A stretch of 38,848 bases of DNA from IMG/VR virus record IMGVR_UViG_3300020202_000053, positions 1 through 38,848 of that record; one strand, given 5' to 3'. A model generated the notes under the pieces. It made no database searches. It was not told the origin of the DNA and saw only the letters and a list, made by a program, of their open reading frames with translations. Position 1 is the stretch's first letter, and every line of letters starts with the position of its first letter. The DNA comes from a virus. A program made the position numbers and the translations under genes. Shown in pieces: positions 1 through 38,848 of this stretch.

Positions 1-127
1 GCCTTCGGCGCGTGCGCAATGCGGTCCCTGACTTCCTCGCCAGCGCCAAGGAAGTACCGAAGACCCTGGACCTCCTGCTGCGGCAGGCCGGCGGGAGCGG
101 CGCGGGCCGTATCGTATGCCTCGTCCA
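1..127. repeat. Terminal direct repeat, copy 1 (identical to 38722-38848)
   Basis: Base-by-base comparison shows 127/127 identity in the same orientation. Confidence 0.97.
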
Positions 128-2864: not shown

Positions 2865-4157
2865 TTAGAACAGGCTCACACCGCCGCCCTTGCCCGACTG
2901 ACCGCCGCGCGAGGTCTGGGTGCCTTGGTTGCTGTAGGGCGTGCCGCCGAAGATCGAGCTTCGCAGGGCTAGGCGCTGGAACGGGTCCTGCTGCTGGCGC
3001 TGGAACTCCCCGTACTGCGCTCCGCTGTTGATCTGCCCGATGGCGTTCTCCGCCCCGCCGAAGCCCGCCAGGGACTGCGCGCCCTGTAGGCGGAGCCCTG
3101 CCCCACGCAAGCCCAGATCGCTGTTGAACTGGCTCGCGCTGTTCTGGGCAGCGAGATAATCCCTGGCGAAGGTATTCGCAGTCGAAGCGTTGGTCGTCGC
3201 TGCCGCCTGCCCCCGATTGGCGTTGTTCTCAGACGCAGAATTTTGCGCTTGCAAGTAATCCCTAGAGAAAATATTGCTCTGGTCTGCGTTATACAGCGCC
3301 TGCTGATTGCTGGCGTCCATGTTCCGGGCGCGTGCGTCTTGGGTAAACCCGGCCTGGGTCAAGCGCCCCTGATTGGTCGCCGCCTGATTTGCCAGCGCTG
3401 CTTGCTGGGCAAAGCCGGCGTTCTGCCCAAGCACGCCCATGTCGACGCCCTGGTTCGCCATGCCCGCCTGCAGCGAGCGGCCGGCGTCCTGCTGGCCCAG
3501 CGCTGCGGCGGTGTTGAAGCCCTGGGAGCGCAGATCCCCGGCGGTGCGAGCCATGGCGTCCATGGTGTTGCGCTGCGTCTCCGCCTCCAACAGGGCCCCG
3601 CGCGAGCCGCCGAAGTTGCCCGACGCCGCCGCCTGCGCCCGTGCCGCGTTGCCCGCCTGGTCCCCCTGGCGCTGGATGTCGGAGAGCGCCTGCTGGACGA
3701 CCTGCCCCTCATAGGGGTTGCGGTAGGCGTCCATGAACCCCGCCCCCGTACCGCCGGACACGTCACGGATGCCGCCGCGGTTGATGTTGGCGGCATTGGC
3801 CTGCGCCATGGGCCCGACCTGCGCCGCGTCCATGTTGTAGGCGGTGAAGGCTGCCGAGGGCTGTCCGCCATAGGCCGTCGCCTGCCACGCCGCAACGTCC
3901 GCCACCGGAGCGCCGCCGAACGCCGTGGCCTGGGTGGGATTGTAGCCCATGGCGGAGCGGGCGCCGCCCTGCGCGTCCTGGATTGCGCCGACGCCGGCCG
4001 TGCTGCCCAGCGGGCCGCCATAGGGCGTCGGGCCCTGCTGCCCGAAGGCGTCCGCGTCCCCAACGAGCTTGATCAAGCCGCTTTCCAATTCGGGCGGAAG
4101 CTCGATCCGGTTCGTGGTGGTCTGGTTACTCGATCCGCGGGAACCGCCTACTGACAT
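2865..4157 (-). CDS. Virion internal/ejection-type protein (430 aa)
   Basis: ORF track. G/A/Q/N-rich with an internal duplicated motif (F[SA]RDYL[QA]AQNSAS twice). Function is assigned by position. Confidence 0.5.
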   Translation of the reverse strand: MSVGGSRGSSNQTTTNRIELPPELESGLIKLVGDADAFGQQGPTPYGGPLGSTAGVGAIQDAQGGARSAMGYNPTQATAFGGAPVADVAAWQATAYGGQPSAAFTAYNMDAAQVGPMAQANAANINRGGIRDVSGGTGAGFMDAYRNPYEGQVVQQALSDIQRQGDQAGNAARAQAAASGNFGGSRGALLEAETQRNTMDAMARTAGDLRSQGFNTAAALGQQDAGRSLQAGMANQGVDMGVLGQNAGFAQQAALANQAATNQGRLTQAGFTQDARARNMDASNQQALYNADQSNIFSRDYLQAQNSASENNANRGQAAATTNASTANTFARDYLAAQNSASQFNSDLGLRGAGLRLQGAQSLAGFGGAENAIGQINSGAQYGEFQRQQQDPFQRLALRSSIFGGTPYSNQGTQTSRGGQSGKGGGVSLF

Positions 4158-7065: not shown

Positions 7066-9368
7066 GGCGCGAACTCCACAATGGTGAGCTTGACCTGGGG
7101 CGTGGACGCGCCGGCCGTCTGCGCCTGGGTGGTGTAGGTGAAGGCGGCACGGTTGCTCGCCAGCTCGACCGGGACGTTCGTGACGGTGCCCCAGTCGCTG
7201 TTGGGCAGGGTCAGGGCGCCCAGGAACTGCGGCGCGTTGCCGGCGCGCGGGCGGGCCAGCAGCACCCGGCCGCCCAGCTGGGTCGCGGTGGCGATGCCCT
7301 GGACGCCGCCAGAGAGGCCGAAGCGCAGGGTGGACGTAGCCGAGAGGGTCGTGGCGCCCGACGGGGAGAGCGTACCCGCGACGGAGAGGGCGGTGCCGGA
7401 GATGTCCACCTGATGGATCTGATTCTCTGCCGTGGCGGTGCTGAACGCCAGGAACCCACTGGAGGTCTGGGGGAAGTTGCCGCCGCTCGCCTGGCTCCAG
7501 AGGCTGTAGAGGATCGTCCCGGCGGATAGCGTGCCGCTGCTGTTGGTCAGCACCACATGACGGGATGCAGCGCCAGTGCCGCTGTTGCCGAAGGTGAACA
7601 GCGCCGTCGTGCCGGAGAGCGCGTAGAGGTTCGGCTGGAAGCGGGAGGCGTTGAAATCGGTGTAGGCCTGATCCGCGAGCGATAAGGTTTCCACCGTCAG
7701 CGGCGTGCCGAAGGTCACCGTCGTGCCGCTCACCCCCACATGCACCGCGCGCACCAGCGTGCCCGACGCTTGGTAGTAGCCGACCACGTAGGAGGTGGCG
7801 GAAAGCTGGCAGGACGGCAGGACAACCGCGCTCACCACGTCATTGACGCCCGCGCTCGTCCCGACCGTGATGGTCGTTCCCGACACGGACAGCACCACGC
7901 CCCGGATGGAGAAGGGCGTTCCCGCCGTGCCGCTGTCGTCGATGTAAAGGGCAAGGGCCGTGGTGTCGGAGACACGGTAGCACCCTAGAGCCTGGGAACT
8001 GGTCGTTCCGAGAGCGGACGTGGCGGCGCCAGAGGTTGGTGTCGACCCGGTGGCGTCGATCACTTCGGCGAAGACATTGCCGTTCAGCCACAACTGCACG
8101 AACACGCCGGCCGTGAGCTGGGCCACTAAGGGCTGCCCGGTGAAGGAGAACGCCGACGCGCTGGCGTCCGTTAGGTGCCCGCTGCTGACGGTGCAGGTCG
8201 TGCCGGCAACCGTCACATTGTAGACCGTGGCGCCGGCATAGATCAGAGCCTTGCCGTCGTTGATCCGGAAGCCTTGGGAGACGGCCACGTTGCTCGCGAC
8301 GATCAGCGCGGGCGTTCCCACCGTCGCCGGATAGGTCGAGTGATCCACCGCCACCACGAAGGGATGGCCGGAGCTGTTGCGGACGAAGTGTAGGCTGAGC
8401 GTGTCCGTCAGCTTCACCGCCACCTCTACCGAGGTCGTGTAGGTGCTGCTGAAGGTGTTGTCGCAGATCACCAGCCAGGGCTCGTACCCCACGCCAGCAA
8501 GGCCCCAGCCGCCGGCAATGCTGCCGTTGTCGTTCAGGAAGCAGGAAACCACCCCGCCCGGCGCCACCGCCCCCAGCAGCGTCCCGGCGCTGTTCCGGAC
8601 GCCGAACGCCCGGGTGCCGGTGTTCTGGAACACGAAAATCGGGCCGCCCTCATCCAGCGTCGTGGCATCGGGCAGCGTCACCGACTGGCTGTTGCTCGCC
8701 ATCGCGACGGTCTGCACGCGGCTGGAGGTGCTGGTCAGGGTGGTGGCGATGGTGATCGCAGCGCCGCCCGCCCCGCCGGCGATGTCCACTTCCGACCACT
8801 CGACGCCGGTTTCATCCGTGGTTACGCGGAGGTACTTTCCCGAATTGCCCGCCCGCGCCGGCAGCGTGCCGGGGGCGATGGCCGCCGCGAGGATGGCCGT
8901 GTCCATCTGGCCTTTGGTCACGGCATCGGTCGAGGCGGTGCCGGTGGCAAGCCCGGTGAGCTTCGCCCCACCCTGGTCCGTGCCGACGACCTGGCGCATG
9001 GTCGTGCCGTCGCCCTGGACCACCGCACGCCCGCTGGCGGGGATGGTCACGCCCGATCCGGCGGAGTAGCCGAAGATGATGGGGGCAGAGCAGTCGTTCA
9101 CCACGACCTTGACGCACTCCACTCCGGGATAGACGACGTTGCCGCCGGTCCCGGTGAAGCGGAAGCCCATGTTGCGGGCTTCGTCGGAGGCGTAGTTGGT
9201 GGAGGTGAGGGTCGCGGTTCCTCCGGTCAGGGCGATGGTCTCAACGCCCTGCACGGCCTCGTCGATGAGGTCGAGCGCCTGGTCGTTCAGGGTCGTGCCC
9301 CAGACGTTCAGGCCCGAGCCGGTTTCCTGCTTGACCGCACGGATGCGCTGGGTAGGCGAGTTAGCCAT
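7062..9368 (-). CDS. Tail fibre / tail spike protein (768 aa)
   Basis: ORF track. GAGG lies upstream of ATG 9368. The N-terminus has a typical fibre-anchor sequence (...ASTDAVTKGQMDTA...), followed by a long S/T/G/A/V-rich beta region. Confidence 0.65.
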   Translation of the reverse strand: MANSPTQRIRAVKQETGSGLNVWGTTLNDQALDLIDEAVQGVETIALTGGTATLTSTNYASDEARNMGFRFTGTGGNVVYPGVECVKVVVNDCSAPIIFGYSAGSGVTIPASGRAVVQGDGTTMRQVVGTDQGGAKLTGLATGTASTDAVTKGQMDTAILAAAIAPGTLPARAGNSGKYLRVTTDETGVEWSEVDIAGGAGGAAITIATTLTSTSSRVQTVAMASNSQSVTLPDATTLDEGGPIFVFQNTGTRAFGVRNSAGTLLGAVAPGGVVSCFLNDNGSIAGGWGLAGVGYEPWLVICDNTFSSTYTTSVEVAVKLTDTLSLHFVRNSSGHPFVVAVDHSTYPATVGTPALIVASNVAVSQGFRINDGKALIYAGATVYNVTVAGTTCTVSSGHLTDASASAFSFTGQPLVAQLTAGVFVQLWLNGNVFAEVIDATGSTPTSGAATSALGTTSSQALGCYRVSDTTALALYIDDSGTAGTPFSIRGVVLSVSGTTITVGTSAGVNDVVSAVVLPSCQLSATSYVVGYYQASGTLVRAVHVGVSGTTVTFGTPLTVETLSLADQAYTDFNASRFQPNLYALSGTTALFTFGNSGTGAASRHVVLTNSSGTLSAGTILYSLWSQASGGNFPQTSSGFLAFSTATAENQIHQVDISGTALSVAGTLSPSGATTLSATSTLRFGLSGGVQGIATATQLGGRVLLARPRAGNAPQFLGALTLPNSDWGTVTNVPVELASNRAAFTYTTQAQTAGASTPQVKLTIVEFAP

Positions 9369-19572: not shown

Positions 19573-20314
19573 GATGGCTTCCCTTCGTGTCGTCCACTAC
19601 GCGGCGGATCCAGTTCCGCCAGGTTCCTGACCAATCCGACTTCCGGCCGTCCTTCCCGGCCTTGCCGCGCCAGTAGTCGCGGAACTTGTCGGCTTCACGG
19701 TCCACCCGGGGCGGGTCCAAGCCCTGGCTCTCGGCCCACAGGCGCCAGTCGTCGGGCAACTCCCAGCCTTCGGGGAGCCGGCTACCTTGGCCGTCGCGCG
19801 GATTGGTTTTCGGGAGGACGGTGACGACGGCGCCCGGCGCATCGGGGCGCGCGCCTCCCCTAGAAGCGGGAGCTTCTAGGGTATTATCTTCATTCCCTTG
19901 ATTTCCTTCATTCTTCTTTGCGTCGCCGCTGCGTCGCTCCTGCGTCGCGTCTGCGTCGGTGGGTGCGTCGGTGACGCGCTCCACGCGCTGATATTCGTCG
20001 TAGTTACAGATGGTTATGAGCGTCTGACCTGCGTCGGTGACGCATACGATCATCCCCTCCTCGACCAATCTCGCGAGGAACCGACGCACCTTGGGGTCAT
20101 CCCACCCCCAGGCACCGGCCAGGAAGCGCAGCGAGTAGGTGAGCTGCCCCCGGGTCAGGGTGACCGACTTCTTGCCGATGCCGGTGCGGGTGTCCTGGTA
20201 GACCGCGTTCTCGATGAGCCAGGCCCACGCAGCGCGACGGCAGAAAGGCTCCCGCGCGCCCCCGAGGGCGGGGTTGTCCATCCAGCCACGGTGCATGAGG
20301 TAGAAACCGCTCAT
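19505..20314 (-). CDS. Replication initiator / replisome-organiser-like protein (269 aa; start refined)
   Basis: ATG 20314 forms an ATGA overlap with the upstream stop. The N-terminal winged-helix-like domain reads MSGFYLMHRGWMDNPALGG...LTRGQLTYSLRFLAGAWGW. The C-terminal motif ADKFRDYWRGKAGKDGRKSDWSGTWRNWIRR is typical of phage O/DnaD-type organisers, from memory. Confidence 0.5.
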   Translation of the reverse strand: MSGFYLMHRGWMDNPALGGAREPFCRRAAWAWLIENAVYQDTRTGIGKKSVTLTRGQLTYSLRFLAGAWGWDDPKVRRFLARLVEEGMIVCVTDAGQTLITICNYDEYQRVERVTDAPTDADATQERRSGDAKKNEGNQGNEDNTLEAPASRGGARPDAPGAVVTVLPKTNPRDGQGSRLPEGWELPDDWRLWAESQGLDPPRVDREADKFRDYWRGKAGKDGRKSDWSGTWRNWIRRVVDDTKGSHHVQAPRQIDPSARRQAILAGMS

Positions 20315-21348
20315 TCGCAGGCTCCCCAGGCATTGCAGGCGGTGCCCATCTCCTCGTGGAGGAAGAGCATCATGTCGTACTGACGGCCGCCCCGGCTGGT
20401 CTTGGACCACTCCGCGACTTCCCAAATGCCCGGCATCGGAATGTCAGCGCGCCCCTGATGCTCACCGGGCGTCTTGTCGTGGGCGAAGAAGCTGGAGAGC
20501 CCGGCGCGGCTGCACTCACCCACCAGGGCCTCCCATTCAGCGATCCGCTGAAACTCCTCGGGAAAGCGGATGGCGATCTCGCGGATTTCGGCCTTGCGCG
20601 ACATGATGCAGGGCATGCAGCCGACGCGGTTCATGCCGTGGTCGTACAGCGGGTTCCACGCAACACCGTGCTTCCGATGCAGGTCGAACACCTCATCTCG
20701 TGTGAGGTGATGGATCGGACGGTAGGTCCAGACGGTGCCGCCGGTATCGACATCGCGGGAGCGCTGGAGCCGGGGGAGCGTGGCGCGGGCGGCGCTCTCT
20801 TCAGCGCGGACGCCCTGCCACGACACGATGGTGTGCCCGGTCGCCAGCAGCGGCCTGTTCACCTGCGTCTGGATCGGGACGATCTTCAGTAGTTCCGTGC
20901 AGAACTTGGCCTTCTTCGATGGGAAGCGGCCCTTCATCATGCACAGGTCGAGGAACGGGTTTCCGGTGGGGTGCAGCAGGTCGAGGGCCCGCGCAACGCG
21001 ATCCGCCGGGACGCCCTTGAGGGGCCATTGCTCCGCGATGTAGCGGCGCTTGCGCTCGATGTCCGCCGTGAAGTCCGCTCGCACCCAGCGAATGGCCGGG
21101 CCGCCCGTCTTCTCGGGCAGCGTGCGCACGAATTCATAGGTCCAGGGGTGTTCGTTGCCCGTGTCGGCAAACACCGCCTGGAATGGCTTGCCGCGCTCCA
21201 GAGCCTTCAGATAGGTGGCGGTGCTGTCCTTGCCGCCGCTGACACTCACGAGGTGGACGACGCGCAGCGGCCGGGGCAACGGATTGCTCTGATCTGCCGT
21301 GAGATTGGGGAAGCCGCTGGCGGGGTCTCTGAGAACCAGATCATCCAT
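20311..21348 (-). CDS. PAPS-reductase-family PP-loop protein, DndC-like (345 aa)
   Basis: ORF track. PP-loop motif VSVSGGKDS is present, plus conserved Cys clusters (GCMPC and a C-terminal CNAWGAC). Confidence 0.85.
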   Translation of the reverse strand: MDDLVLRDPASGFPNLTADQSNPLPRPLRVVHLVSVSGGKDSTATYLKALERGKPFQAVFADTGNEHPWTYEFVRTLPEKTGGPAIRWVRADFTADIERKRRYIAEQWPLKGVPADRVARALDLLHPTGNPFLDLCMMKGRFPSKKAKFCTELLKIVPIQTQVNRPLLATGHTIVSWQGVRAEESAARATLPRLQRSRDVDTGGTVWTYRPIHHLTRDEVFDLHRKHGVAWNPLYDHGMNRVGCMPCIMSRKAEIREIAIRFPEEFQRIAEWEALVGECSRAGLSSFFAHDKTPGEHQGRADIPMPGIWEVAEWSKTSRGGRQYDMMLFLHEEMGTACNAWGACE

Positions 21349-27031: not shown

Positions 27032-27523
27032 ATGGACGCCGCCGCCCTCGCCCGCCTCGCCCGTGACCAGATCAAGGCCCGTGGTTGCCGTCCCGCCGCC
27101 CCCCTGATGGGACCGGCCAAGGAGAGCGCCCGGCTGCTGGGCGACGCCAAGCTGGTGACGCTGGACAGCTTCACCTTCCGCATCGAGGCGCCCGGGCTGC
27201 GGGTGTTCTTCGACGGCCGGCACGAGGGCAACCCCGTGACCTTCAGCCAGGGCGGAGAGGCGGAGCTGCGGGCGCTGGTGGGCCGGCTGCCGGGCATGAC
27301 CGCCCCGGATGCCGAGGAGCGCGCCAAGGAGGCCGCCGCCCGCACCGCCATGGTCGCCGGGATAGACGCAGGCGCCGCCGAGATCGTCCTGCAGTCCCGC
27401 GCCCTTGTGGAGGCCGCCGCCAGCGCCAAGGGCATGACGCCCGAACAGTACCGCGCAGAGCGCGCCGCCCGAGAAGCCGAAGCCATGCGGCGCCGTGGCT
27501 GGGGCGCCTGGTTCGGCGCCTGA
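27032..27523 (+). CDS. Hypothetical protein (163 aa)
   Basis: ORF track, with an Ala/Arg/Glu-rich helical C-terminus. Confidence 0.55.
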   Translation: MDAAALARLARDQIKARGCRPAAPLMGPAKESARLLGDAKLVTLDSFTFRIEAPGLRVFFDGRHEGNPVTFSQGGEAELRALVGRLPGMTAPDAEERAKEAAARTAMVAGIDAGAAEIVLQSRALVEAAASAKGMTPEQYRAERAAREAEAMRRRGWGAWFGA

Positions 27524-27560
27524 TCCCTCTCCCCCTCACCCTGCCCCCATAGGTGGCCCA

Positions 27561-28217
27561 ATGCCCCAGCTCAAGCCCGAACTGAAGACCATCCTCGACC
27601 GCTACGGCATCGACCCCCGCGACAAGTCGCAGGTCTGGGACTGCCACGGCACGCTGGTGCTCTACCACAAGGCCTACGAGATCATCGCGGCCAAGGAGGG
27701 CATCCAGTTCGACCCGCCCACGGTCATCGAAGCCAGCAGCAAGGACAAGACCGTCTCCCTGCTGGTGGTGGGGCGCATGGGAGGCCGGGCCGAGTGGTCC
27801 ATCGGTGAGGCGGCGCCGGGCAACTGCAAGAACGCCTACCCCTACGCCATGGCGGAGAAGCGGGCGAAGGATCGGGTGATCGGCAAGCTGGTGGGGCTGG
27901 CGGCCTACGTCTACAGCGAGGACGAGGCGGACGACTTTAAGGACACTCCCCGCCGGCCAGTCGCCAATGACGATCCGGTCGATTTCTGGGACCGCCCGTC
28001 CTACGCGATCAAGTGCCCGACCCTCAAGGACTGGGCAACCGCATTCGCTGAGAAGGCGAAGGTGGCTCCGAGCATCGCCGCGCTGGACAAGCTGATCGCC
28101 AACAACCGCGCCGACTACGACGACACGGCGGGCACGAAGACCGGGGACCGGCTGCGGGAAATCGTGGACGAGCGCCGGGACTACATCGCCAATCCCCCGG
28201 CGGAAGCGGCGGAGTAA
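27561..28217 (+). CDS. Possible ERF-like single-strand annealing protein (218 aa; start refined)
   Basis: In frame with ORF 27495-28217. The segment NAYPYAMAEKRAKDRVIGKLVGLAAYVYSEDEADDF resembles the ERF core followed by an acidic tail, from memory of P22 Erf. This is a weak call. Confidence 0.35.
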   Translation: MPQLKPELKTILDRYGIDPRDKSQVWDCHGTLVLYHKAYEIIAAKEGIQFDPPTVIEASSKDKTVSLLVVGRMGGRAEWSIGEAAPGNCKNAYPYAMAEKRAKDRVIGKLVGLAAYVYSEDEADDFKDTPRRPVANDDPVDFWDRPSYAIKCPTLKDWATAFAEKAKVAPSIAALDKLIANNRADYDDTAGTKTGDRLREIVDERRDYIANPPAEAAE

Positions 28218-28223
28218 CCGGCC

Positions 28224-28697
28224 ATGAATGCCATCTCCCCCAAGCCCGCCGCCTTCTCCGGCTCCTTCGCGGACTTCAAGACCGTCCGCACCCGGTCGGT
28301 GTGCCAGATCGTCATCGAGGTTCCGATAGAGCAGGCCGGCGCTGCCCTCGAGGCGCTGGGCGGCATCCCCGTGCCCGGGAAGGAGCCTTGGGTGGCGGTG
28401 GCCCGGCTGATGGAGAAGCCGCAGGAGGAGCCGGTGAGCCGCGCTACTCCTGCCTCCAAGAGCCTGGCGACCCGCGCTGGCATCCTCTGCAACGACCCGA
28501 TCTTCTGGCAGTACCTGAGCGAGACGTTCGGCTATGCGGAGCTGACCTGCGAGGCGAACGCCGCAGCGGCGCTCCGCCACCACATCGGCATCGCCAGCCG
28601 GCGGGACCTCGACACGGACAGGGGCGCCGCCGCGCGCTTCTCCGACCTCGACAGCCGGTTCCGGCAGTACGCGGCCCGTGGGGAGTATGCGCGATGA
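28224..28697 (+). CDS. Hypothetical protein (157 aa)
   Basis: ORF track. Confidence 0.55.
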   Translation: MNAISPKPAAFSGSFADFKTVRTRSVCQIVIEVPIEQAGAALEALGGIPVPGKEPWVAVARLMEKPQEEPVSRATPASKSLATRAGILCNDPIFWQYLSETFGYAELTCEANAAAALRHHIGIASRRDLDTDRGAAARFSDLDSRFRQYAARGEYAR

Positions 28698-29056
28698 TCC
28701 TGCCCCCGAAGCGCAAGCCCCCGAAGTCCGGCATCGCCCGCACCGTGAACCGGGAATGGCCCCGGCATCGCAAGTTCGTCCGAGGCCACGCCTGCTCCGT
28801 CCCTGGCTGCCAGGAAGGCCCGATCGAGTTCGCCCACGTCCGCCAGGGCTTCACCGCCGGCACCGGACAGAAGCCCTTCGACTGGCTGGGGATCAGCCTG
28901 TGCCACGCCCACCATGCCGAGCAGCACCGCGTCGGCCACCACGCCTTCGACAAGCTGCACGGCATCGACAGCGTGAAGCTCGCCCTCGCCTTCGCCAAGG
29001 CATCCCCCGACCTCGCCATGCGGGAAGCCATGGCCCTCACCAATGCAGCGGAGTAG
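28694..29056 (+). CDS. HNH-like / DUF968-like protein (120 aa; start refined)
   Basis: ATGA coupling at 28694. Motifs RGHACSVPGC...IEFAHVR...LCHAHHAEQHRVG. Confidence 0.5.
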   Translation: MILPPKRKPPKSGIARTVNREWPRHRKFVRGHACSVPGCQEGPIEFAHVRQGFTAGTGQKPFDWLGISLCHAHHAEQHRVGHHAFDKLHGIDSVKLALAFAKASPDLAMREAMALTNAAE

Positions 29057-29059
29057 GCC

Positions 29060-29434
29060 ATGACCACGATGGATGTAGAGGGGCTGATCCAGCGACTGCG
29101 GGAGTGGGCGCCGGGGCTTGAGCAGCACGGCTACAAGCCGACAGCGACCGCCATGAGGGACGCCGCCTCCGCCCTGGAGGCGATGAAGGAACAGGTGGAG
29201 GAGTTGCGGGCGTTTGCAGCCGTCGATGCTGGTGCAACGCTTGCGGACCGTCTGCGAGCCGACCACGCCGAAGCGGAGCGGGACAGGCTGCGGGTGGCCC
29301 TGCTGGACTGCGAGACAGCCCTGACCTTCGCCTGCGGAGCGGCTGGCTCCAGTCGCCACTGGGATGATTGGTGGCGGAAGCACTGCAACACCTACAACAG
29401 CGCCCGCGCCGCCCTCAAGGAGCCCACGCCATGA
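29060..29434 (+). CDS. Hypothetical protein (124 aa)
   Basis: ORF track. Confidence 0.55.
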   Translation: MTTMDVEGLIQRLREWAPGLEQHGYKPTATAMRDAASALEAMKEQVEELRAFAAVDAGATLADRLRADHAEAERDRLRVALLDCETALTFACGAAGSSRHWDDWWRKHCNTYNSARAALKEPTP

Positions 29435-29775
29435 AGACAGCTGAGGAGAGGGCCTGGGCTATTGCGGAGCGGTATGCCTCCAGCAAGGGAGAGGCTATGT
29501 CGCTCAAGATGGACATCCTCGCCATTGTGGCAGGAGCCGGCCAGATCAGCGCGAGTGGATGGCAGCCCATTGAGACGGCGCCGCACGCAACCGACGTGCT
29601 GCTGTACTCGCCCGTGCTTGGCAGTTTAGAGGCCAGGATGGAGGTTGGGTACGCCAGCGGCGGGCGGCGGGACGCGGTGGGCTCGACCATGTGGTACCAC
29701 GGCACCGCTACCCACTGGATGCCCCTCCCCGCCGCCCCCACCCCGGAGGCCGCCGATGACGCGCGCACAGCTTGA
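29431..29775 (+). CDS. DUF551-like protein (114 aa; start refined)
   Basis: ATGA coupling. Motifs WQPIETAP...VLLY...THWMPLP. Confidence 0.55.
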   Translation: MKTAEERAWAIAERYASSKGEAMSLKMDILAIVAGAGQISASGWQPIETAPHATDVLLYSPVLGSLEARMEVGYASGGRRDAVGSTMWYHGTATHWMPLPAAPTPEAADDARTA

Positions 29776-29920
29776 GCGCCGCCGCGCCGCCTGGCGCTGG
29801 GTGAACGAGAATTTCAGCGAGACGCAGTTCTGGGGGTACGAGCAGATCATGCAGTTTCTGGACGACAGAACGTATCAGCGCCCCACCCCGGATATTCCCA
29901 ATGCCAATGAGGGGGCGTGA
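29756..29920 (+). CDS. Hypothetical protein (54 aa; start refined)
   Basis: In frame with ORF 29645-29920. Sequence begins MTRAQLERRRAAWRWVNENFSETQFWGYEQIMQF... Confidence 0.4.
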   Translation: MTRAQLERRRAAWRWVNENFSETQFWGYEQIMQFLDDRTYQRPTPDIPNANEGA

Positions 29921-30099
29921 TGGAAAGCCTCCCCGACTTCCGCGAGTTCTACGCCGCCCGCAACCGCATGCCGCTGGGCGAATGGGGGCACCTTGGCGAG
30001 CAGTACGAGGACGTGCTGCGCCGCTTCATGGACACGGCAGCCGACTATCTCGACGCCGGCCGCGCCGCCCTATCTGTCGGAGAGAGCAATGACGCCTGA
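29920..30099 (+). CDS. Hypothetical protein (59 aa)
   Basis: ORF track frame, with TGATG coupling. Confidence 0.45.
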   Translation: MESLPDFREFYAARNRMPLGEWGHLGEQYEDVLRRFMDTAADYLDAGRAALSVGESNDA

Positions 30100-30559
30100 T
30101 GACCGCCTCTTCACGAACGCCATGCCCAGCTGGCCGCGCATCCTGACGCGGGATCTGGCCGCCGAGTACATGGACGTGACGCCCGACGAGCTGGACCGCC
30201 TCTGGCAGCGCAACCGCATCCAGGGGAAGTTCACGCATCCGATCTGGGGCGAGGCGTGGGACCTCTATGCCCTCTCCCCCATGGAGGAGAAGCGCGGCCG
30301 GAGCTTCGTCTACTTCATCCAGACCGAGAGCGGCCCCATCAAGATCGGCCACTCCAAGAACCCGGAGGAGCGGATGCGGGCCATGCAGACCGCCCACCAC
30401 GAGGAGCTGACCATGCTGTTCCAGCTCTCCGGCGGCGCCTGGATGGAGGAGCAGATGCACCGCCGGTTCTACCGCAGCCACCTGCGGGGCGAGTGGTTCA
30501 AGCCCACGCCCATGCTGGTCAACAGCATCAACGCCTGGAAGAGGATCGGTCATGGCTGA
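30089..30559 (+). CDS. Xis-like HTH fused to T5orf172 (GIY-YIG-related) domain (156 aa; start refined)
   Basis: In frame with ORF 29993-30559. The N-terminal ILTRDLAAEYMDVTPDELDRL resembles the excisionase HTH of the next gene. The C-terminal domain reads SFVYFIQTESGPIKIGHSKNPEERMRAMQT...HLRGEWFK. Confidence 0.7.
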   Translation: MTPDDRLFTNAMPSWPRILTRDLAAEYMDVTPDELDRLWQRNRIQGKFTHPIWGEAWDLYALSPMEEKRGRSFVYFIQTESGPIKIGHSKNPEERMRAMQTAHHEELTMLFQLSGGAWMEEQMHRRFYRSHLRGEWFKPTPMLVNSINAWKRIGHG

Positions 30560-30845
30560 GCCCGCCCGCCACCCGACCCAGCTCCCCGTCTCCTGCCCCC
30601 CTCGCGGCCTGAACCGCGAGCAGGCGGCGGAATATGTCGGGGTCAAGCTGACCAAGTTCCTGGAGATGGTCGAGGAGGGGCTGATGCCCCGCCCCAAGCA
30701 CATCGGCACCCGCACCGTGTGGGACCGCGTGGCCCTTGACGCCGCCTTCGATGCGCTGCCCGATAGCGGCGAAGCGTCCGAGTCGTCGGCTCCCCAGGTC
30801 ACCGCGAACCCCTGGGACAGCCTGAAGGCCAAGGGGCGCGCCTGA
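30552..30845 (+). CDS. xis: Excisionase-family HTH protein (97 aa)
   Basis: ORF track. Sequence LNREQAAEYVGVKLTKFLEMVEEGLMPRPKHIGTRTVWDRVALD. It lies directly upstream of int and is coupled to it (TGATG). Confidence 0.7.
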   Translation: MAEPARHPTQLPVSCPPRGLNREQAAEYVGVKLTKFLEMVEEGLMPRPKHIGTRTVWDRVALDAAFDALPDSGEASESSAPQVTANPWDSLKAKGRA

Positions 30846-32011
30846 TGACGGGAGCGCGGGACATGGCGGAATTTCGGCTGCGGGATGGGACCGGCTCCAT
30901 CCGCCTGAAATACATCGTGATCGACATCGACCGCTACGGCCAGGCCCGCGTCTATGTCCGCCGCGCCGGCCGCAAGAAGGTCCGTCTCAACGAGACGCCC
31001 GGTACCCCTGCCTTCATGGAGGAGTACCGCGCCGCGCTGGAGGGCCGCCCCTATGGCGCCGCGGCGATCAAGCGCCCGGTGATCGCCCAGGCCGCGCCCG
31101 GCACCCTGCGCTGGATGGTCGAGCAGTATTACGCCTGCGGCGAGTTCCGCCTACTGGACGTAGCCACGCGCCGCATGCGCCGGAACATCCTGGAAGCCCT
31201 GTGCCGGGAGCACGGCGACAAGCCGGTCAATCTGCTCTCCGAGGAGCACATCTACATCCTCCGGGACGAGAAGGCGGACACGCCCCACGCCGCGAACACG
31301 CTGCTGAAGGTGCTGCGCCACATGTTCCGCATCGGCGCCAAGCAGAAGTGGGTGCGCCGGAACGTCACCAAGGACGTGGAGCCGCTGTCCGCCCCAAGCG
31401 AGGGGCACCATAGCTGGACCGTCGAGGAGGTGAAGCAGTTCGAGGAGGCGCACCCCATCGGCACGAAGGCGCGGCTCGCCATGGCGCTGCTGCTCTACAC
31501 CGGCCAGCGCCGCTCCGATGTGGTGAAGATGGGGCCGCAGCATGTGCGCGACGGCTGGCTGACCTTCACCCAGGTCAAAAACGCCGGCCGCAAGCCCGTC
31601 CACATGTCGATACCGGTTTTGCCCGAGCTGCAGGCCATCATCGACGCAACGCCGTCCGGGCATCTGGCCTACCTGACCACGCAGTTCGGCAAGCCCTACA
31701 CCGCCGCCGGGTTCGGCAACGCCTTCCGGGACTGGTGCAATAAGGCTGGCCTTCCCCACTGCTCCGCCCACGGCCTGCGCAAGGCCGCTGCCGCGATGCT
31801 GGCGGAGCGGGGCGCGACCGAGCACCAGATCATGGCGATCACCGGCCACCGCAGCTTGTCGGAGGTGCAGCGCTACACCCGCGCCGCCCGCCAGAAGCTG
31901 CTTGCCGGAGAGGCCGCCAAGCTGATGGGCGGCGAACAGACGACGGACGAAACTGTCCAACTTTCCGGTGCGTCGGAAAAAGTTGGACAGAAACGTCCCG
32001 TAACCCCTTGA
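30845..32011 (+). CDS. int: Tyrosine recombinase / phage integrase (388 aa)
   Basis: ORF track. The catalytic region reads ...CSAHGLRKAAAAMLAERGATEHQIMAITGHRSLSEVQRYT.... The start could instead be ATG 30863. Confidence 0.93.
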   Translation: MTGARDMAEFRLRDGTGSIRLKYIVIDIDRYGQARVYVRRAGRKKVRLNETPGTPAFMEEYRAALEGRPYGAAAIKRPVIAQAAPGTLRWMVEQYYACGEFRLLDVATRRMRRNILEALCREHGDKPVNLLSEEHIYILRDEKADTPHAANTLLKVLRHMFRIGAKQKWVRRNVTKDVEPLSAPSEGHHSWTVEEVKQFEEAHPIGTKARLAMALLLYTGQRRSDVVKMGPQHVRDGWLTFTQVKNAGRKPVHMSIPVLPELQAIIDATPSGHLAYLTTQFGKPYTAAGFGNAFRDWCNKAGLPHCSAHGLRKAAAAMLAERGATEHQIMAITGHRSLSEVQRYTRAARQKLLAGEAAKLMGGEQTTDETVQLSGASEKVGQKRPVTP

Positions 32012-32145
32012 TCTATAGAGGTGCTGGAAGTGGCTGGCGACCCCGGCAGGATTGCAACAAAACAATGTTCTCAGGCCCTTGGGGCCAAGTTGGACGGCAG
32101 CGGTATCCGCCTGAATGCGTCGAAATTCGCGCGCGGTGTCCAACT
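31953..32145. other. Probable attP: tRNA-3-prime-end-like core flanked by four AGTTGGAC arm-type repeats
   Basis: On the minus strand, 32053-32035 reads AATCCTGCCGGGGTCGCCA, which fits a T-stem 3-prime strand, 7-nt acceptor strand, discriminator and CCA. AGTTGGAC or its complement occurs at 31955-31962, 31981-31988, 32088-32095 and 32138-32145, arranged symmetrically around the core. Confidence 0.5.
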
Positions 32146-32249: not shown

Positions 32250-32462
32250 GTGACCGCATGCATCAACGACCTGCCATGGCTGCTGGACGCCGCGCACCCC
32301 GGCACGATCCGCGCCTCCGTTCCGACCGGCCCCGTGGTGCTGGTGGTCGATCCCGCCCGCCATGATGTCCCCGACGACGCCTTGGCTGAGCGCATCGCCA
32401 GCATGATCGTGGACGCCCACAACGACCGGCTGGCCCGGCTTGCCGGAGGGCTGCATCAGTGA
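32250..32462 (+). CDS. Hypothetical protein, first gene of the QueF-like/DpdA-like operon (70 aa, GTG start)
   Basis: ORF track. A GTGA overlap couples it to the next gene. Confidence 0.45.
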   Translation: MTACINDLPWLLDAAHPGTIRASVPTGPVVLVVDPARHDVPDDALAERIASMIVDAHNDRLARLAGGLHQ

Positions 32463-32812
32463 CCGTCCGCACCTGCCTCCCTGACGCCCCCGGCTTGGTG
32501 GTCCATCGCCTGCCCCTGCCGCAATGCTGTCCGGTGTCCGGCAACCCGCTGCCCGGCTCCACCCTGACCATGGCCTACCTGCCCAAGGATCGGGTCTTCC
32601 CGGTCGAGTGGTTGGAGAGCCTGATCCGCGAGTACCAGGGCGGCCATGCCTCCCGGAACATCCGGAACATGGAGGAGATGGTCCAGGACCTCGCCATCCG
32701 AGCTGCCGAGAACACCGGCGTCCGGGTGCGGGTGCGGGCGGACCTGAAGATCAACCCGCCGCAGGGCGGCACCGTGCAGGACCTCCTCATGACCGCGAGG
32801 GCGCGGCCATGA
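32459..32812 (+). CDS. QueF-family T-fold protein lacking the NADPH-binding lysines (QueF-L-like, 117 aa, GTG start)
   Basis: ORF track. CCPVSGNP matches the QueF catalytic-Cys motif (CP-x-[ST]-G-[QN]-P). VEWLESLIREY sits where the QueF motif E-[SL]-K-[SA]-h-K-[LY]-[YFW] would be, but both Lys are replaced. A C-terminal QGG sits in the RGG position. Confidence 0.6.
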   Translation: MTVRTCLPDAPGLVVHRLPLPQCCPVSGNPLPGSTLTMAYLPKDRVFPVEWLESLIREYQGGHASRNIRNMEEMVQDLAIRAAENTGVRVRVRADLKINPPQGGTVQDLLMTARARP

Positions 32813-33663
32813 GGTTCTTCGTCGGCATCCATCAGCCGTGTGACGCCCATAAGGTGGACGCAGCGTTCATCTCCGTCAGCCGCCTAGAGAACAGGATATC
32901 CGGTTTTCTGGTTGGCGACTGGATCATGGACAGCAAGGGCTTTTCCGAAGTGGCTGGCCATGGTCGCTACCGGATGTCGGTGCAGGAGCATGCCGCCCAA
33001 ATCCGCCGATGGTCAAAGAACGGCAACCTGATGGCGGCCATCGCCCAAGATTGGATGTGCGAGGATCCAGTTCTAAAGCGTGTCCTGATTGAAGAGGGAA
33101 AGCTCGACCCGCCGCCAGGATTTGATTTCGGCGATGCTCAAGCTTGGAAAAAGCTTGGTGATCTGCCGTGGGCCTATGAGGGCCAGCGCGAAGATCAGAT
33201 CCTGGAGCATCAGCGCCGCACAATAGAGCGCTATGACGCCCTGATGACGTGCGATGTCGGCGGCGTCTACATCATGCCGGTCCTGCAAGGCTACGCGCCT
33301 GAGGACTACGTGCGCCACATCCGCATGTACGGAGACCGGCTGAAGCCGGGCATGTGGGTGGGCGTCGGCTCAGTCTGCAAGCGCAACAGCAATCCAGAGA
33401 CGGTCGCGGACGTGCTGGCGGCCATCAAGGCCGAGCGCCCCGACCTTCTGTTGCACGGCTTCGGCGTCAAGACCACGGCCCTGGGGGATGTGGAGGTGCG
33501 GGACATGCTCCATACAGCCGACAGCATGGCGTGGAGCTATAACGCCCGCATCAACGGCCGGAACGGCAACGACGTGCGCGAGGCCCTGGCCTTCGCCGCC
33601 AAGATCGCCGCCATGCCCCGTCGCCCGAAGCAGCTCTCAATGTTCGGGAGAGCCACCGCCTAA
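32809..33663 (+). CDS. dpdA: TGT-like DNA transglycosylase, DpdA-like (284 aa; start refined)
   Basis: In frame with ORF 32524-33663, with ATGA coupling at 32809. Motifs DSKGFSE, GVGSVCKR, LHGFGVK and ADSMAWS, as recalled for DpdA/TGT-fold enzymes. The N-terminal half is visibly lower in GC. Confidence 0.6.
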   Translation: MRFFVGIHQPCDAHKVDAAFISVSRLENRISGFLVGDWIMDSKGFSEVAGHGRYRMSVQEHAAQIRRWSKNGNLMAAIAQDWMCEDPVLKRVLIEEGKLDPPPGFDFGDAQAWKKLGDLPWAYEGQREDQILEHQRRTIERYDALMTCDVGGVYIMPVLQGYAPEDYVRHIRMYGDRLKPGMWVGVGSVCKRNSNPETVADVLAAIKAERPDLLLHGFGVKTTALGDVEVRDMLHTADSMAWSYNARINGRNGNDVREALAFAAKIAAMPRRPKQLSMFGRATA

Positions 33664-37797: not shown

Positions 37798-38848
37798 TTG
37801 TTGTAGGCGCTCGTTCCTGCGGCGCCGAAGCTGCCGACAAGGCCCGGGGGGAGTTCCCGGATCGGCACCTTAGGAGCGGCAGCGTTCGCCGCTTGGGCTC
37901 CCTTGACGGCACTCACCGCCCACGGTGCCATGGTCATCATCGCCGCCCTCGCCTTTGGCCCAAGGTTGCCCGTCAGCTTCTGCAGGATGTTCGCGGCGGC
38001 GGCGGTCGTGTTCGACGTGTTCTTGCCGCCCTCCGCCACCGTGGTGACCATCGTCGCCACCTGACGGAACTGCTGCATGAGCTTTAGCTCCTCCGGGGAG
38101 AACAGCACCCGCATCACCTCCGGGTTCTGCTTCATCGCGCCGTCGAAGGCGGTCCCGAACTTGGCGCCGGAGAAGTCCCGAGCGGTGATGTCGCGGTTGT
38201 ACGGACCCTCGCCCGCCTTGGCGAGGCGCACGAATGCCTCCTCCTTCAGCGCCCGCCACTCGGTGCTGTCCGGCCCCAGCACCTGCCGCATCCGCACCAT
38301 GTCGCGCGCCAAGTCGGGCTTAGACACGAACCCAGTGTCGGACAGACCGAAGATGTAGTTGGTGGCGCTCTCTGGCGCGACCGTGAACTGCATCTTCCCC
38401 GAGCGGTATTCCTTCTCCAGAAGGTCTTGGATGAGGTCGTTGCCCTTGAACTTGCCGGCGAACTCCCGGTTGGTGGCGATCGCCTTCTTCCATGCGTCCA
38501 CGGCGGTTTGATCGCCCGACATCAGGCCATCTTTGACCATCTCCGGCACCGCTTCATCGAAGCGGCGCACCATGTCCCGCAGCGCCCCGGCCTCGGTCTG
38601 GTCCTGCGTCTCGCGGGCGAGCTTGCCTGTGGCGCGGCGCCAGTCGAACAGAGATCCAACGTTGACCGAAGCGTCTCCGCCCGCCTGGGTCAGTGCGTCG
38701 AGTGCCGCAAGCTGGTCCCGGGCCTTCGGCGCGTGCGCAATGCGGTCCCTGACTTCCTCGCCAGCGCCAAGGAAGTACCGAAGACCCTGGACCTCCTGCT
38801 GCGGCAGGCCGGCGGGAGCGGCGCGGGCCGTATCGTATGCCTCGTCCA
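37794..38848 (-). CDS. C-terminal part of the 735-aa junction-spanning virion protein
   Basis: Track ORF 37794-38573 (MVRRFDEAVPEMV...) stays open upstream to the window end. Hand translation reads ...ARDQLAALDALTQAGGDASVNVGSLFDWRRATGKLARETQDQTEAGALRD-MVRRF. Since 38722-38848 duplicates 1-127, joining 1-1280 to 37794-38721 gives 2,208 nt, or 736 codons. Confidence 0.7.
   Translation of the reverse strand, partial: DEAYDTARAAPAGLPQQEVQGLRYFLGAGEEVRDRIAHAPKARDQLAALDALTQAGGDASVNVGSLFDWRRATGKLARETQDQTEAGALRDMVRRFDEAVPEMVKDGLMSGDQTAVDAWKKAIATNREFAGKFKGNDLIQDLLEKEYRSGKMQFTVAPESATNYIFGLSDTGFVSKPDLARDMVRMRQVLGPDSTEWRALKEEAFVRLAKAGEGPYNRDITARDFSGAKFGTAFDGAMKQNPEVMRVLFSPEELKLMQQFRQVATMVTTVAEGGKNTSNTTAAAANILQKLTGNLGPKARAAMMTMAPWAVSAVKGAQAANAAAPKVPIRELPPGLVGSFGAAGTSAYNN
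38722..38848. repeat. Terminal direct repeat, copy 2 (identical to 1-127)
   Basis: Base-by-base comparison shows 127/127 identity in the same orientation. Confidence 0.97.

Follow-up and report, generated by a model that had tools for sequence, protein, structure and literature searches.

A DpdA-family transglycosylase gene coupled to the gene for a small protein of the QueF/QueF-L superfamily was identified in the virus record IMGVR_UViG_3300020202_000053 of IMG/VR (38,848 nt, analyzed at full length and called the window hereafter). The pair lies at 32250-33663 in a plus-strand operon of three genes, namely orf70 (70 aa, 32250-32462), the gene for the superfamily member, here called the T-fold protein (117 aa, 32459-32812), and dpdA (284 aa, 32809-33663), in which each stop overlaps the next start (GTGA between the first two genes and ATGA between the last two), as a first, sequence-only reading of this DNA had described. 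The pairing of T-fold protein and DpdA, which is recurrent in uncultured phages, points to an uncharacterized step in phage DNA hypermodification. DpdA-based 7-deazaguanine modification is itself a known system (PMC6884629); judging from sequence comparison, the novelty appears to lie in the partner family, in the alteration of its active site, and in how strictly it is linked to several DpdA lineages. In the reading that we favor, and to which we give about even chances, DpdA would insert preQ0, the T-fold protein would tailor the nitrile with a cysteine, and the phage DNA would thereby be protected.

The product of the third gene is, by homology and predicted structure, a real DpdA-family transglycosylase, and its exchange activity is predicted from homology, fold, and catalytic residues. 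It matched the Pfam model PF23859 DpdA (E = 1e-36; score 126.9 bits, cut-off 27) and PHROG 1279 (E = 2.4e-55). Searches against the PDB sequences with the single sequence or with an 11-sequence profile returned nothing, so the fold had to come from structure prediction. The AlphaFold model (AlphaFold2, AF2; predicted local distance difference test, pLDDT, 93.7) was compared with the PDB by Foldseek, and all top matches were TGTs (E ~1e-5, query template modeling score, TMq, ~0.53) together with 7ui4, the PDB entry of the Salmonella 'DNA preQ0 insertase DpdA'. Three catalytic aspartates, D41 (32929-31, in MDSKGF), D81 (33049-51, in AQDW), and D238 (33520-22, in ADSMAW), were invariant across 39-51 homologues including the DpdA of phage 9g. 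In the DpdA of S. Montevideo, the aspartates described as invariant and essential are Asp95 (general acid/base), Asp130 (base recognition), and Asp256 (nucleophile) (PMC10164549), to which D41, D81, and D238 appear to correspond by motif correspondence, not by residue-level superposition. The motifs GVGSVCKR, LHGFGVK, and ADSMAWS, as well as MDSKGF and AQDWMCE, occupy invariant or near-invariant columns. The claim that the third protein carries TGT/DpdA-like motifs was thus borne out by PF23859, PHROG 1279, the TGT fold, and the invariant aspartates. The DpdA family is large (>5,379 clusters at E <= 1e-20), and the nearest named relatives of the window DpdA came from Azospirillum, Paraburkholderia, and Bradyrhizobium. 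No ParB-like protein (DpdB) or other component of bacterial Dpd systems was matched in whole-window Pfam scans of open reading frames (ORFs) of at least 80 aa, and neither the window DpdA nor the T-fold protein matched a Dpd model of PADLOC.

The second gene encodes a single-domain protein of 117 aa that had no match in Pfam, NCBIfam, PHROG, or PADLOC, and none to Pfam PF14489 QueF even at E <= 1. A profile of 25 close homologues matched QueF-L in the PDB (E = 1.1e-4), and a profile of 89 diverse members matched B. subtilis QueF (2.6e-5), QueF-L (2.7e-3), and, more weakly, GTP cyclohydrolase I. PF14489 QueF was reached by 39 of the 89 members at E <= 0.1 (best 1e-6), and one homologue is labelled QueF by JGI; a jackhmmer search from E. 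coli QueF did not retrieve the family. The AF2 model of the 117-aa protein (pLDDT 87.9) had a beta-beta-alpha-alpha-beta-beta topology, and its top Foldseek matches were the QueF-L structures 5jyx and 5k0p (TM 0.69/0.73), followed by GTP cyclohydrolase I and QueF; the BFVD library of viral structures yielded nothing at E <= 1e-3. The profile and structure searches proposed in the sequence-only reading, against TGT/DpdA and QueF/QueF-L, therefore gave matches for both proteins. These results indicate that the 117-aa protein is a real T-fold member of the QueF/QueF-L superfamily without the NADPH (nicotinamide adenine dinucleotide phosphate) motif. By its residues, it appears to be neither QueF nor true QueF-L and to form a distinct clade, because the NADPH-binding lysines and the catalytic Asp and His are all missing. 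Homology to DpdC was also considered and rejected, as no usable match was obtained in Pfam, NCBIfam, PHROG, or PADLOC.

The active-site residues were mapped from HMMER and hhalign sequence alignments, which were mutually consistent, and not from inspected superpositions. The loop CCPVSGNP (residues 23-30, 32525-32548, plus strand) contains the putative thioimide-forming Cys24 (32528-32530), which aligned with Cys21 of QueF-L, Cys55 of B. subtilis QueF, and Cys190 of E. coli QueF. C24, P25, and P30 were invariant in all 89 family members, and N29 was present in 85 of them. Met71-Glu72 (32669-32674, plus strand) takes the place of the His-Glu pair in QueF and QueF-L and aligned with H229-E230 in E. 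coli QueF and the 'HE' of QueF-L, the B. subtilis counterpart of E72 being Glu97. This Glu, the putative substrate anchor, was also invariant (89/89), and M71 was found in 72 of 89 members. The stretch that corresponds to the QueF motif reads E-V-y-S-L-a-a-y in the family, against E-S-K-S-L-K-L-Y in QueF, and E50-W-L-E-S-L-I-R in the window protein; of this motif, the Glu and Ser as well as the hydrophobic and aromatic positions are retained, and neither NADPH-binding Lys position is occupied by Lys. The family signature can be written as C-P-x-[ST]-x-N-P-x-x-G-S, and conservation beyond it was seen at His16, Tyr40, and Arg69 and at an acidic position where helix 1 begins. The alignments agree with the earlier description of the second protein as having the QueF Cys motif CCPVSGNP and the downstream Glu and lacking the two NADPH lysines; that description had overlooked that the catalytic Asp (Cys+7) and the His before the Glu are also missing. 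Based on the alignments and the model, the T-fold protein probably binds a 7-deazaguanine.

The T-fold clade comprised 186 clusters among 1.84 billion representatives in an exhaustive profile search. Genome, viral, and metagenome collections were searched for its loci (designated by L numbers) with alignment-derived queries and with a degenerate pattern, and the ORFs in these loci were called mechanically; the degenerate DNA pattern encoded CCPVSxNPxxGS, so that the locus set is skewed to the 'CC' half of the family. Sixty-two loci with a T-fold ORF were obtained, which formed 48 clusters at 95% identity. A Pfam-type DpdA gene, recognized by jackhmmer, was adjacent on the same strand in 29 of the 48 clusters, and in 9-10 others the neighbor was a divergent DpdA-like gene that was missed by DpdA models and shows the motifs DSxAF/GxGG/HxFG/(S/T)DS; no DpdA was seen in 4 clusters, and the T-fold gene was located at a contig end in 5-6. 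Accordingly, a DpdA or divergent DpdA-like gene adjoined the T-fold gene on the same strand in approximately 90% of the informative loci. Both gene orders were found, often with overlapping stop and start codons. The two-enzyme cassette, which had been thought unusual, is therefore less so than claimed, since no fewer than 38 distinct loci, of metagenomic, viral, or prophage origin, contained the T-fold/DpdA pair. Among the carriers were prophages of the cultured strains Ensifer sp. NM-2, Agrobacterium sp. M50-1, and Aureimonas glaciei. A check of long T-fold family members for informative fusions (Rosetta-stone) gave sub-threshold QueF matches and no informative extra domain.

Several of the divergent neighbors belong to a family of approximately 415 aa with an N-terminal Cys-rich (zinc-finger-like) segment, which has no Pfam DpdA match. 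Its members were found at 8724-9962 in L010, 1124-2407 in L073, 3422-4687 in L076, 842-2101 in L095, and 1901-3133 in L029, and the T-fold gene was coupled to them in every case. The family was aligned to DpdA by hhalign (90% probability, E = 1.7e-6) and has the motifs LDSxAFSD, LSAQGV, FGLGGWC, VHVFGV, and LSTDS; it would seem to be a DpdA subfamily that has escaped annotation. Smaller divergent DpdA-like genes, likewise coupled to a T-fold gene, were located at 4671-5459 in L055, 10845-11711 in L089, and 2880-3623 in L082. In addition, the DpdA of an Ensifer prophage, which has a T-fold partner, was 84% identical to that of Rhizobium phage RHph_TM3_3_3, which has none, as would be expected if the partner added an accessory tailoring step and the insertase itself were unchanged.

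The surroundings of the pair in related loci contained anti-restriction genes, including those for a C5 methylase with a dCMP deaminase, Lar, N6 methylases, and an SRA-HNH nuclease. In L112, the early genes around the pair (146-1563) encode, among others, a C5 DNA methylase and a dCMP/cytidine deaminase, and in L113 (7432-7788), a Lar restriction-alleviation protein and DUF5131; these two neighborhoods look like clusters of anti-restriction functions. The prophage of Ensifer sp. NM-2 (L003) encodes, at 8162-8962 on the opposite strand and one small gene away from the DpdA/T-fold pair, an SRA (ScoMcrA-like)-HNH protein that matched the PADLOC models of type IV methyl-directed restriction, so that a modification-dependent nuclease sits there beside a DNA-hypermodification module. 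In the genome of RHph_TM3_3_3 (L104, MN988468), the depositors placed a 15-bp 'attachment site attL' (3662-3676) inside the dpdA coding sequence, which would be odd if genuine.

FolE, QueD, QueE, and QueC were found in the window neither by the Pfam scans, which covered every ORF of at least 80 aa in six frames, nor by jackhmmer searches with the enzymes of phage 9g and E. coli, in agreement with the claim that the genome lacks them. Likewise, 459 kb of T-fold loci contained no FolE, QueD, QueE, QueC, or canonical QueF. The base that DpdA would insert must therefore be preQ0 that is made by the queuosine pathway of the host or imported. Hyphomicrobiales such as Sinorhizobium make queuosine. 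A phage DpdA alone inserts host preQ0 in E. coli, and phage-encoded YhhQ and phages having only DpdA have already been described (PMC6884629). The proposal that the phage scavenges host preQ0 and writes dPreQ0 or dG+ into its DNA was in this way upheld by inference in its first part, a host-made or imported precursor; as the T-fold protein lacks defining features of both QueF and QueF-L, dG+ by QueF-L chemistry is only one possibility for the second. In the locus L109 (JGI Ga0068857_100000163), a gene of the PF02592 Vut_1 family (3534-4004) was translationally coupled upstream of a DpdA gene. This DpdA is the closest insertion-bearing relative of the window DpdA (64% identity), and the Vut_1 gene occupies the slot of the T-fold gene.

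According to the favored reading, modification would proceed in two steps. DpdA would exchange guanine in duplex DNA for a 7-deazaguanine base, the host-made or imported preQ0. The co-translated T-fold protein would then bind the 7-deazaguanine ring via Glu72, and Cys24 would attack the 7-cyano group to form a thioimide, as in QueF and QueF-L. Because the protein has no NADPH site, the thioimide adduct cannot be reduced; it might be resolved by ammonia to the amidine dG+, as by QueF-L, or by water to the amide dADG. The nitrile conversion would most likely take place on dPreQ0 already in DNA, and QueF-L offers a precedent, as it turns nucleic-acid-bound preQ0 into G+ via a Cys thioimide and free ammonium (PMC5485725). 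The product may be dG+, dADG, or another base. The T-fold protein would thus assist DpdA as a tailoring enzyme, in analogy to Gat-QueC, ArcS, or DpdC, and its biological role would be to shield phage DNA from host nucleases, a role that is suggested by known DpdA systems and by the anti-restriction neighbors in related loci.

Among characterized proteins, QueF-L of Pyrobaculum calidifontis (5jyx/5k0p) is similar to the T-fold protein in being a single-domain T-fold of approximately 110 aa with a loop Cys in C-P-x-S, an anchoring Glu, and no NADPH Lys pair, and it acts downstream of a TGT-family transglycosylase on preQ0 embedded in nucleic acid (PMC5485725). Nevertheless, QueF-L has Asp28 (Cys+7) and the His of 'HE', whereas the T-fold protein lacks that Asp and has Met for His; its active-site loop is one residue longer than that of QueF-L and carries N-P-x-x-G-S, and the sequence identity between the two is approximately 18-21%. 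Furthermore, QueF-L is crenarchaeal and paired with arcTGT, which acts on tRNA, whereas the T-fold family belongs to bacterial phages and prophages and is paired with DpdA, which acts on DNA. QueF, unimodular in B. subtilis and bimodular in E. coli, belongs to the same superfamily as the T-fold family and has in common with it the anchoring Glu as well as the Glu within the QueF motif, and the loop C-P-x-[ST]-G-[QN]-P with the following G-S aligned with C190...G199-S200 of E. coli QueF. However, QueF has Asp62/197, His96/229, and both lysines of E(S/L)K(S/A)hK(L/Y)(Y/F/W), all of which are missing from the T-fold protein, so that it falls outside the definition of QueF in PMC5372742. Of the residues named there, Cys55/194 and Glu97/234 have counterparts in the T-fold protein (C24 and E72), and Asp62/201 has none.

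The same logic, in which DpdA inserts preQ0 and an adjacent enzyme converts the nitrile to dG+ or dADG, is found in phage 9g (DpdA with Gat-QueC), Vibrio phage nt-1 (DpdA2 with ArcS), and Salmonella (DpdA/B with DpdC) (PMC6884629, PMC10516641, PMC10164549). The partners differ in fold, being a T-fold protein here, an amidotransferase-QueC fusion in Gat-QueC, a TGT paralogue in ArcS, and a separate protein in DpdC. Phages 9g and nt-1 also encode FolE, QueD, QueE, and QueC, whereas the window phage encodes none of them, and the Salmonella Dpd system has the ParB-like ATPase DpdB, which the window lacks. Phages with DpdA only (many mycobacteriophages, RHph_TM3_3_3, and Sinorhizobium phage phiLM21) have a DpdA of the same family with 33-53% identity to that of the window and, like the window phage, no preQ0 pathway, their precursor being presumed to come from the host or by import (PMC6884629). 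In contrast to the window phage, they have no T-fold partner, and the window DpdA additionally carries an insertion of approximately 35 residues. The published 7-deazaguanine catalogue consists of FolE, QueD, QueE, QueC, QueC*, QueF, ArcS, Gat-QueC, DpdL/M/N, and DpdA1-4 and has no T-fold partner of this kind. No phage QueF in the survey of PMC10516641 aligned with QueF-L, and all kept the NADPH motif. No description of a DpdA-associated QueF-like family was found in the full-text literature searched, the coverage of which was incomplete, so that this is absence of evidence only.

Several observations weigh against the tailoring of inserted preQ0. At position 31 (Cys+7), QueF and QueF-L have Asp, whereas the window protein has Leu and the family is variable (Q28/R16/L11/A8/K6/I6); neither this column nor the one aligned with Asp28 of QueF-L, which is mostly P/E/A, holds a conserved acid. 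Both QueF and QueF-L conserve this Asp as their general acid/base (PMC5485725), and sequences without the Cys+7 Asp have been treated as non-QueF (PMC5372742). In addition, the His before the Glu ('LHEE' in QueF-L) is replaced by Met. With the Asp not conserved and the His changed, thioimide formation or its turnover may not proceed as proposed. The median isoelectric point (pI) of the family is 6.3, with no obvious charge signature of nucleic-acid binding; we discarded pI as a proxy for such binding, since this value is uninformative. A member of the preQ0-transporter family (Vut_1/YhhQ) in the coupled slot of L109 hints at precursor supply rather than tailoring, and the preQ0 proficiency of the host is assumed. 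Finally, three diverse members of the T-fold family used as queries found nothing in 50,697 deposited phage genomes, and no cultured phage with a T-fold gene was found.

The replaced Asp and His, together with the conserved His16, Asn29, Ser34, Tyr40, and Arg69 of the family itself, mean that the chemistry and the product may differ from those of both known enzymes. Carried further, and held only tentatively, the clade could be a new type of enzyme, in which a QueF-style Cys and Glu are set in another catalytic constellation formed by these five residues and carry out an undescribed 7-deazaguanine reaction, as part of a two-gene, host-parasitic module spread over at least four divergent DpdA lineages including the ~415-aa family. 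Its outcome might be a derivative outside the eight known ones, or a covalent protein-base intermediate might channel preQ0 to the insertase.

Alternatively, the T-fold protein may capture or supply free-base preQ0 by means of Cys24 and Glu72, possibly as a reversible thioimide, and so shield it from the high-affinity QueF of the host and pass it to DpdA, or it may convert a salvaged precursor to the base that is then inserted. This explanation, which we consider rather unlikely, would predict more modification and not a different modification. It accounts for the retention of the residues for binding and capture (Cys and Glu) and the loss of those for onward chemistry (the NADPH lysines, Asp, and His), and QueF-L does form a stable, unreactive thioimide with free preQ0 (PMC5485725). 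The Vut_1/YhhQ gene of L109 likewise suggests that partners of a minimal DpdA can serve substrate supply; the near-neutral to acidic family is as expected for a free-base enzyme, and no cassette has its own preQ0 synthesis, so that supply would be limiting. On the other hand, stoichiometric sequestration would be unusual for so strictly conserved an active-site loop, and the release of a covalent adduct to DpdA would be unprecedented. Moreover, the closest structural relative, QueF-L, acts on nucleic-acid-bound preQ0, and DpdA alone already obtains preQ0 in E. coli (PMC6884629).

The genomic position of the cassette bears on a further explanation. An exact direct repeat of 127 bp at both ends of the window (1-127 and 38722-38848) indicates a circularly closed assembly with a true genome length of 38,721 bp, and thus a complete phage genome instead of an excised prophage fragment. 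The Pfam scans identified a P22-like temperate phage, with matches to the P22 portal, P22 coat, SU10 adaptor, large terminase, S24 repressor, cell-wall hydrolase, and tyrosine integrase, and a near-identity DNA search of the deposited phages gave no match. The tyrosine integrase gene (int, 30845-32011, plus strand; Pfam Phage_integrase E = 4.9e-20, PHROG 1 integrase E = 2.4e-37) lies directly upstream of the cassette on the same strand, separated from its three genes by a spacer of 238 bp. The octamer AGTTGGAC (reverse orientation GTCCAACT) occurred only four times in the 38.8-kb window, in both orientations and always within 31955-32145, a region that covers the 3' end of int and the int-orf70 spacer; 0.72 copies would be expected by chance, and four copies were reached in 0 of 100 shuffles. 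As this cluster resembles the integrase-binding sites of attP, the claim that the cassette is next to attP is reasonable, and 31955-32145 is a probable attP. A search of the region for a tRNA-derived attP core gave no tRNA or Rfam match.

All called genes from approximately 27.5 kb (27495) through int to dpdA are on the plus strand. A promoter scan of the interval from int to the cassette gave no site, and all terminator-like matches in it were on the minus strand. Transcription of the cassette across attP may therefore be limited to the circular form. The plus-strand run at 27495-30845 includes a T5orf172/MUG113 nuclease-like gene and a 97-aa ORF (30552-30845) coupled to the start of int. A weak HTH_17 match came from some ORF in the 26-38.8 kb region, as a guess this 97-aa ORF, which would then be a likelier Xis than orf70. 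All three cassette genes had coding-type guanine-cytosine (GC) content by codon position and a Shine-Dalgarno-like sequence upstream (for orf70, 0.77/0.48/0.85 and AGGAG), and the mechanical ORF of dpdA extends back to 32524, the coupled start being 32809. The 70-aa protein, which had been put forward as a partner in the cassette, had no usable match in Pfam, NCBIfam, PHROG, or PADLOC; its sole match among 5.8 billion proteins was itself, and it was not found in any other T-fold locus. We therefore rejected orf70 as a conserved third partner and regard it as a lineage-specific ORFan confined to this phage. Elsewhere in the window, on the minus strand at 20314-21348, a 345-aa protein with a PAPS-reductase domain (Pfam PF01507, E = 1.5e-23) also matched the PADLOC models SspD, BrxP, and DndC, and a search with E. 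coli CysH retrieved it; its gene is possibly a second one for DNA modification or anti-defence. RHph_TM3_3_3 likewise encodes a 'putative PAPS reductase' near dpdA (L104, 4797-5606).

The dpdA gene itself appears to be a mosaic. The GC content fell to 0.555-0.605 over 32800-33300, against 0.673 in the window, and the GC content at third codon positions (GC3) was 0.68 in the N-terminal half of the gene, 0.89 in the C-terminal half, and 0.53 in an insertion of approximately 35 codons (residues ~92-128, 33082-33192, plus strand) that forms the core of the low-GC patch. This lineage-specific insertion, modelled by AF2 as helices with high confidence, was missing from most relatives, including 10 that were aligned and L112, the nearest phage with the same T-fold gene, and is probably shared by DpdA homologues of 277-292 aa. 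The nucleotide identity between the window and L112 was 75-83% over the T-fold gene and fell to ~60-66% at the start of dpdA, which fits a recombination junction, although unequal evolutionary rates could also explain the drop. The low-GC, mosaic N-terminal half pointed out in the sequence-only reading is thus real by GC, GC3, and the identity drop to L112.

P22 has its lysogenic-conversion genes at the site that corresponds to the position of the cassette across attP. The cassette might accordingly be expressed from the prophage, modify the chromosome of the lysogen, and mark self for a nuclease, modification-dependent or modification-sensitive, encoded elsewhere or exclude superinfecting phages. 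Its location directly across attP from int is compatible with such self-marking, as are the SRA-HNH type IV-like nuclease beside the pair in the Ensifer prophage and the use of the same chemistry as a restriction-modification mark by bacterial Dpd (PMC10164549). We nonetheless consider it improbable, because the window has no adjacent nuclease or restriction component, the pairs of relatives are located among early lytic genes with methylases and Lar and not at prophage ends, and the absence of a promoter-like site between int and the cassette may restrict its transcription through attP to the circular form. The least probable explanation is a canonical nitrile reductase QueF that converts preQ0 to preQ1 and leaves dPreQ1 in the DNA, as in Streptococcus phage Dp-1 and other QueF phages: it has in its favor the JGI name of one homologue, the match of the wider profile to B. 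subtilis QueF (E = 2.6e-5), the 39 of 89 members that reach PF14489 at E <= 0.1, and the fact that all earlier phage 'QueF-L' candidates proved to be QueF (PMC6884629, PMC10516641), but both lysines of the NADPH motif and the Asp and His of the proton relay are gone, the protein is non-QueF by the criteria of PMC5372742, it has no Pfam QueF match at E <= 1, and jackhmmer from E. coli QueF misses the family.

Hypermodification with 7-deazaguanines is a major counter-defence of phages, and the catalogue of its enzymes is closely curated. A QueF-like protein devoid of the NADPH motif and tightly, repeatedly coupled to DpdA contrasts with surveys that concluded that phage QueF-L is nonexistent (PMC10516641). 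If the T-fold protein tailors dPreQ0, dG+ or dADG would have a fourth route, non-homologous to the others, or a new base would be made. If it captures preQ0 instead, it would show how phages with DpdA only compete with the QueF of the host for a scarce precursor. Either outcome bears on a question that has stood since 2019, namely what these phages put in their DNA.

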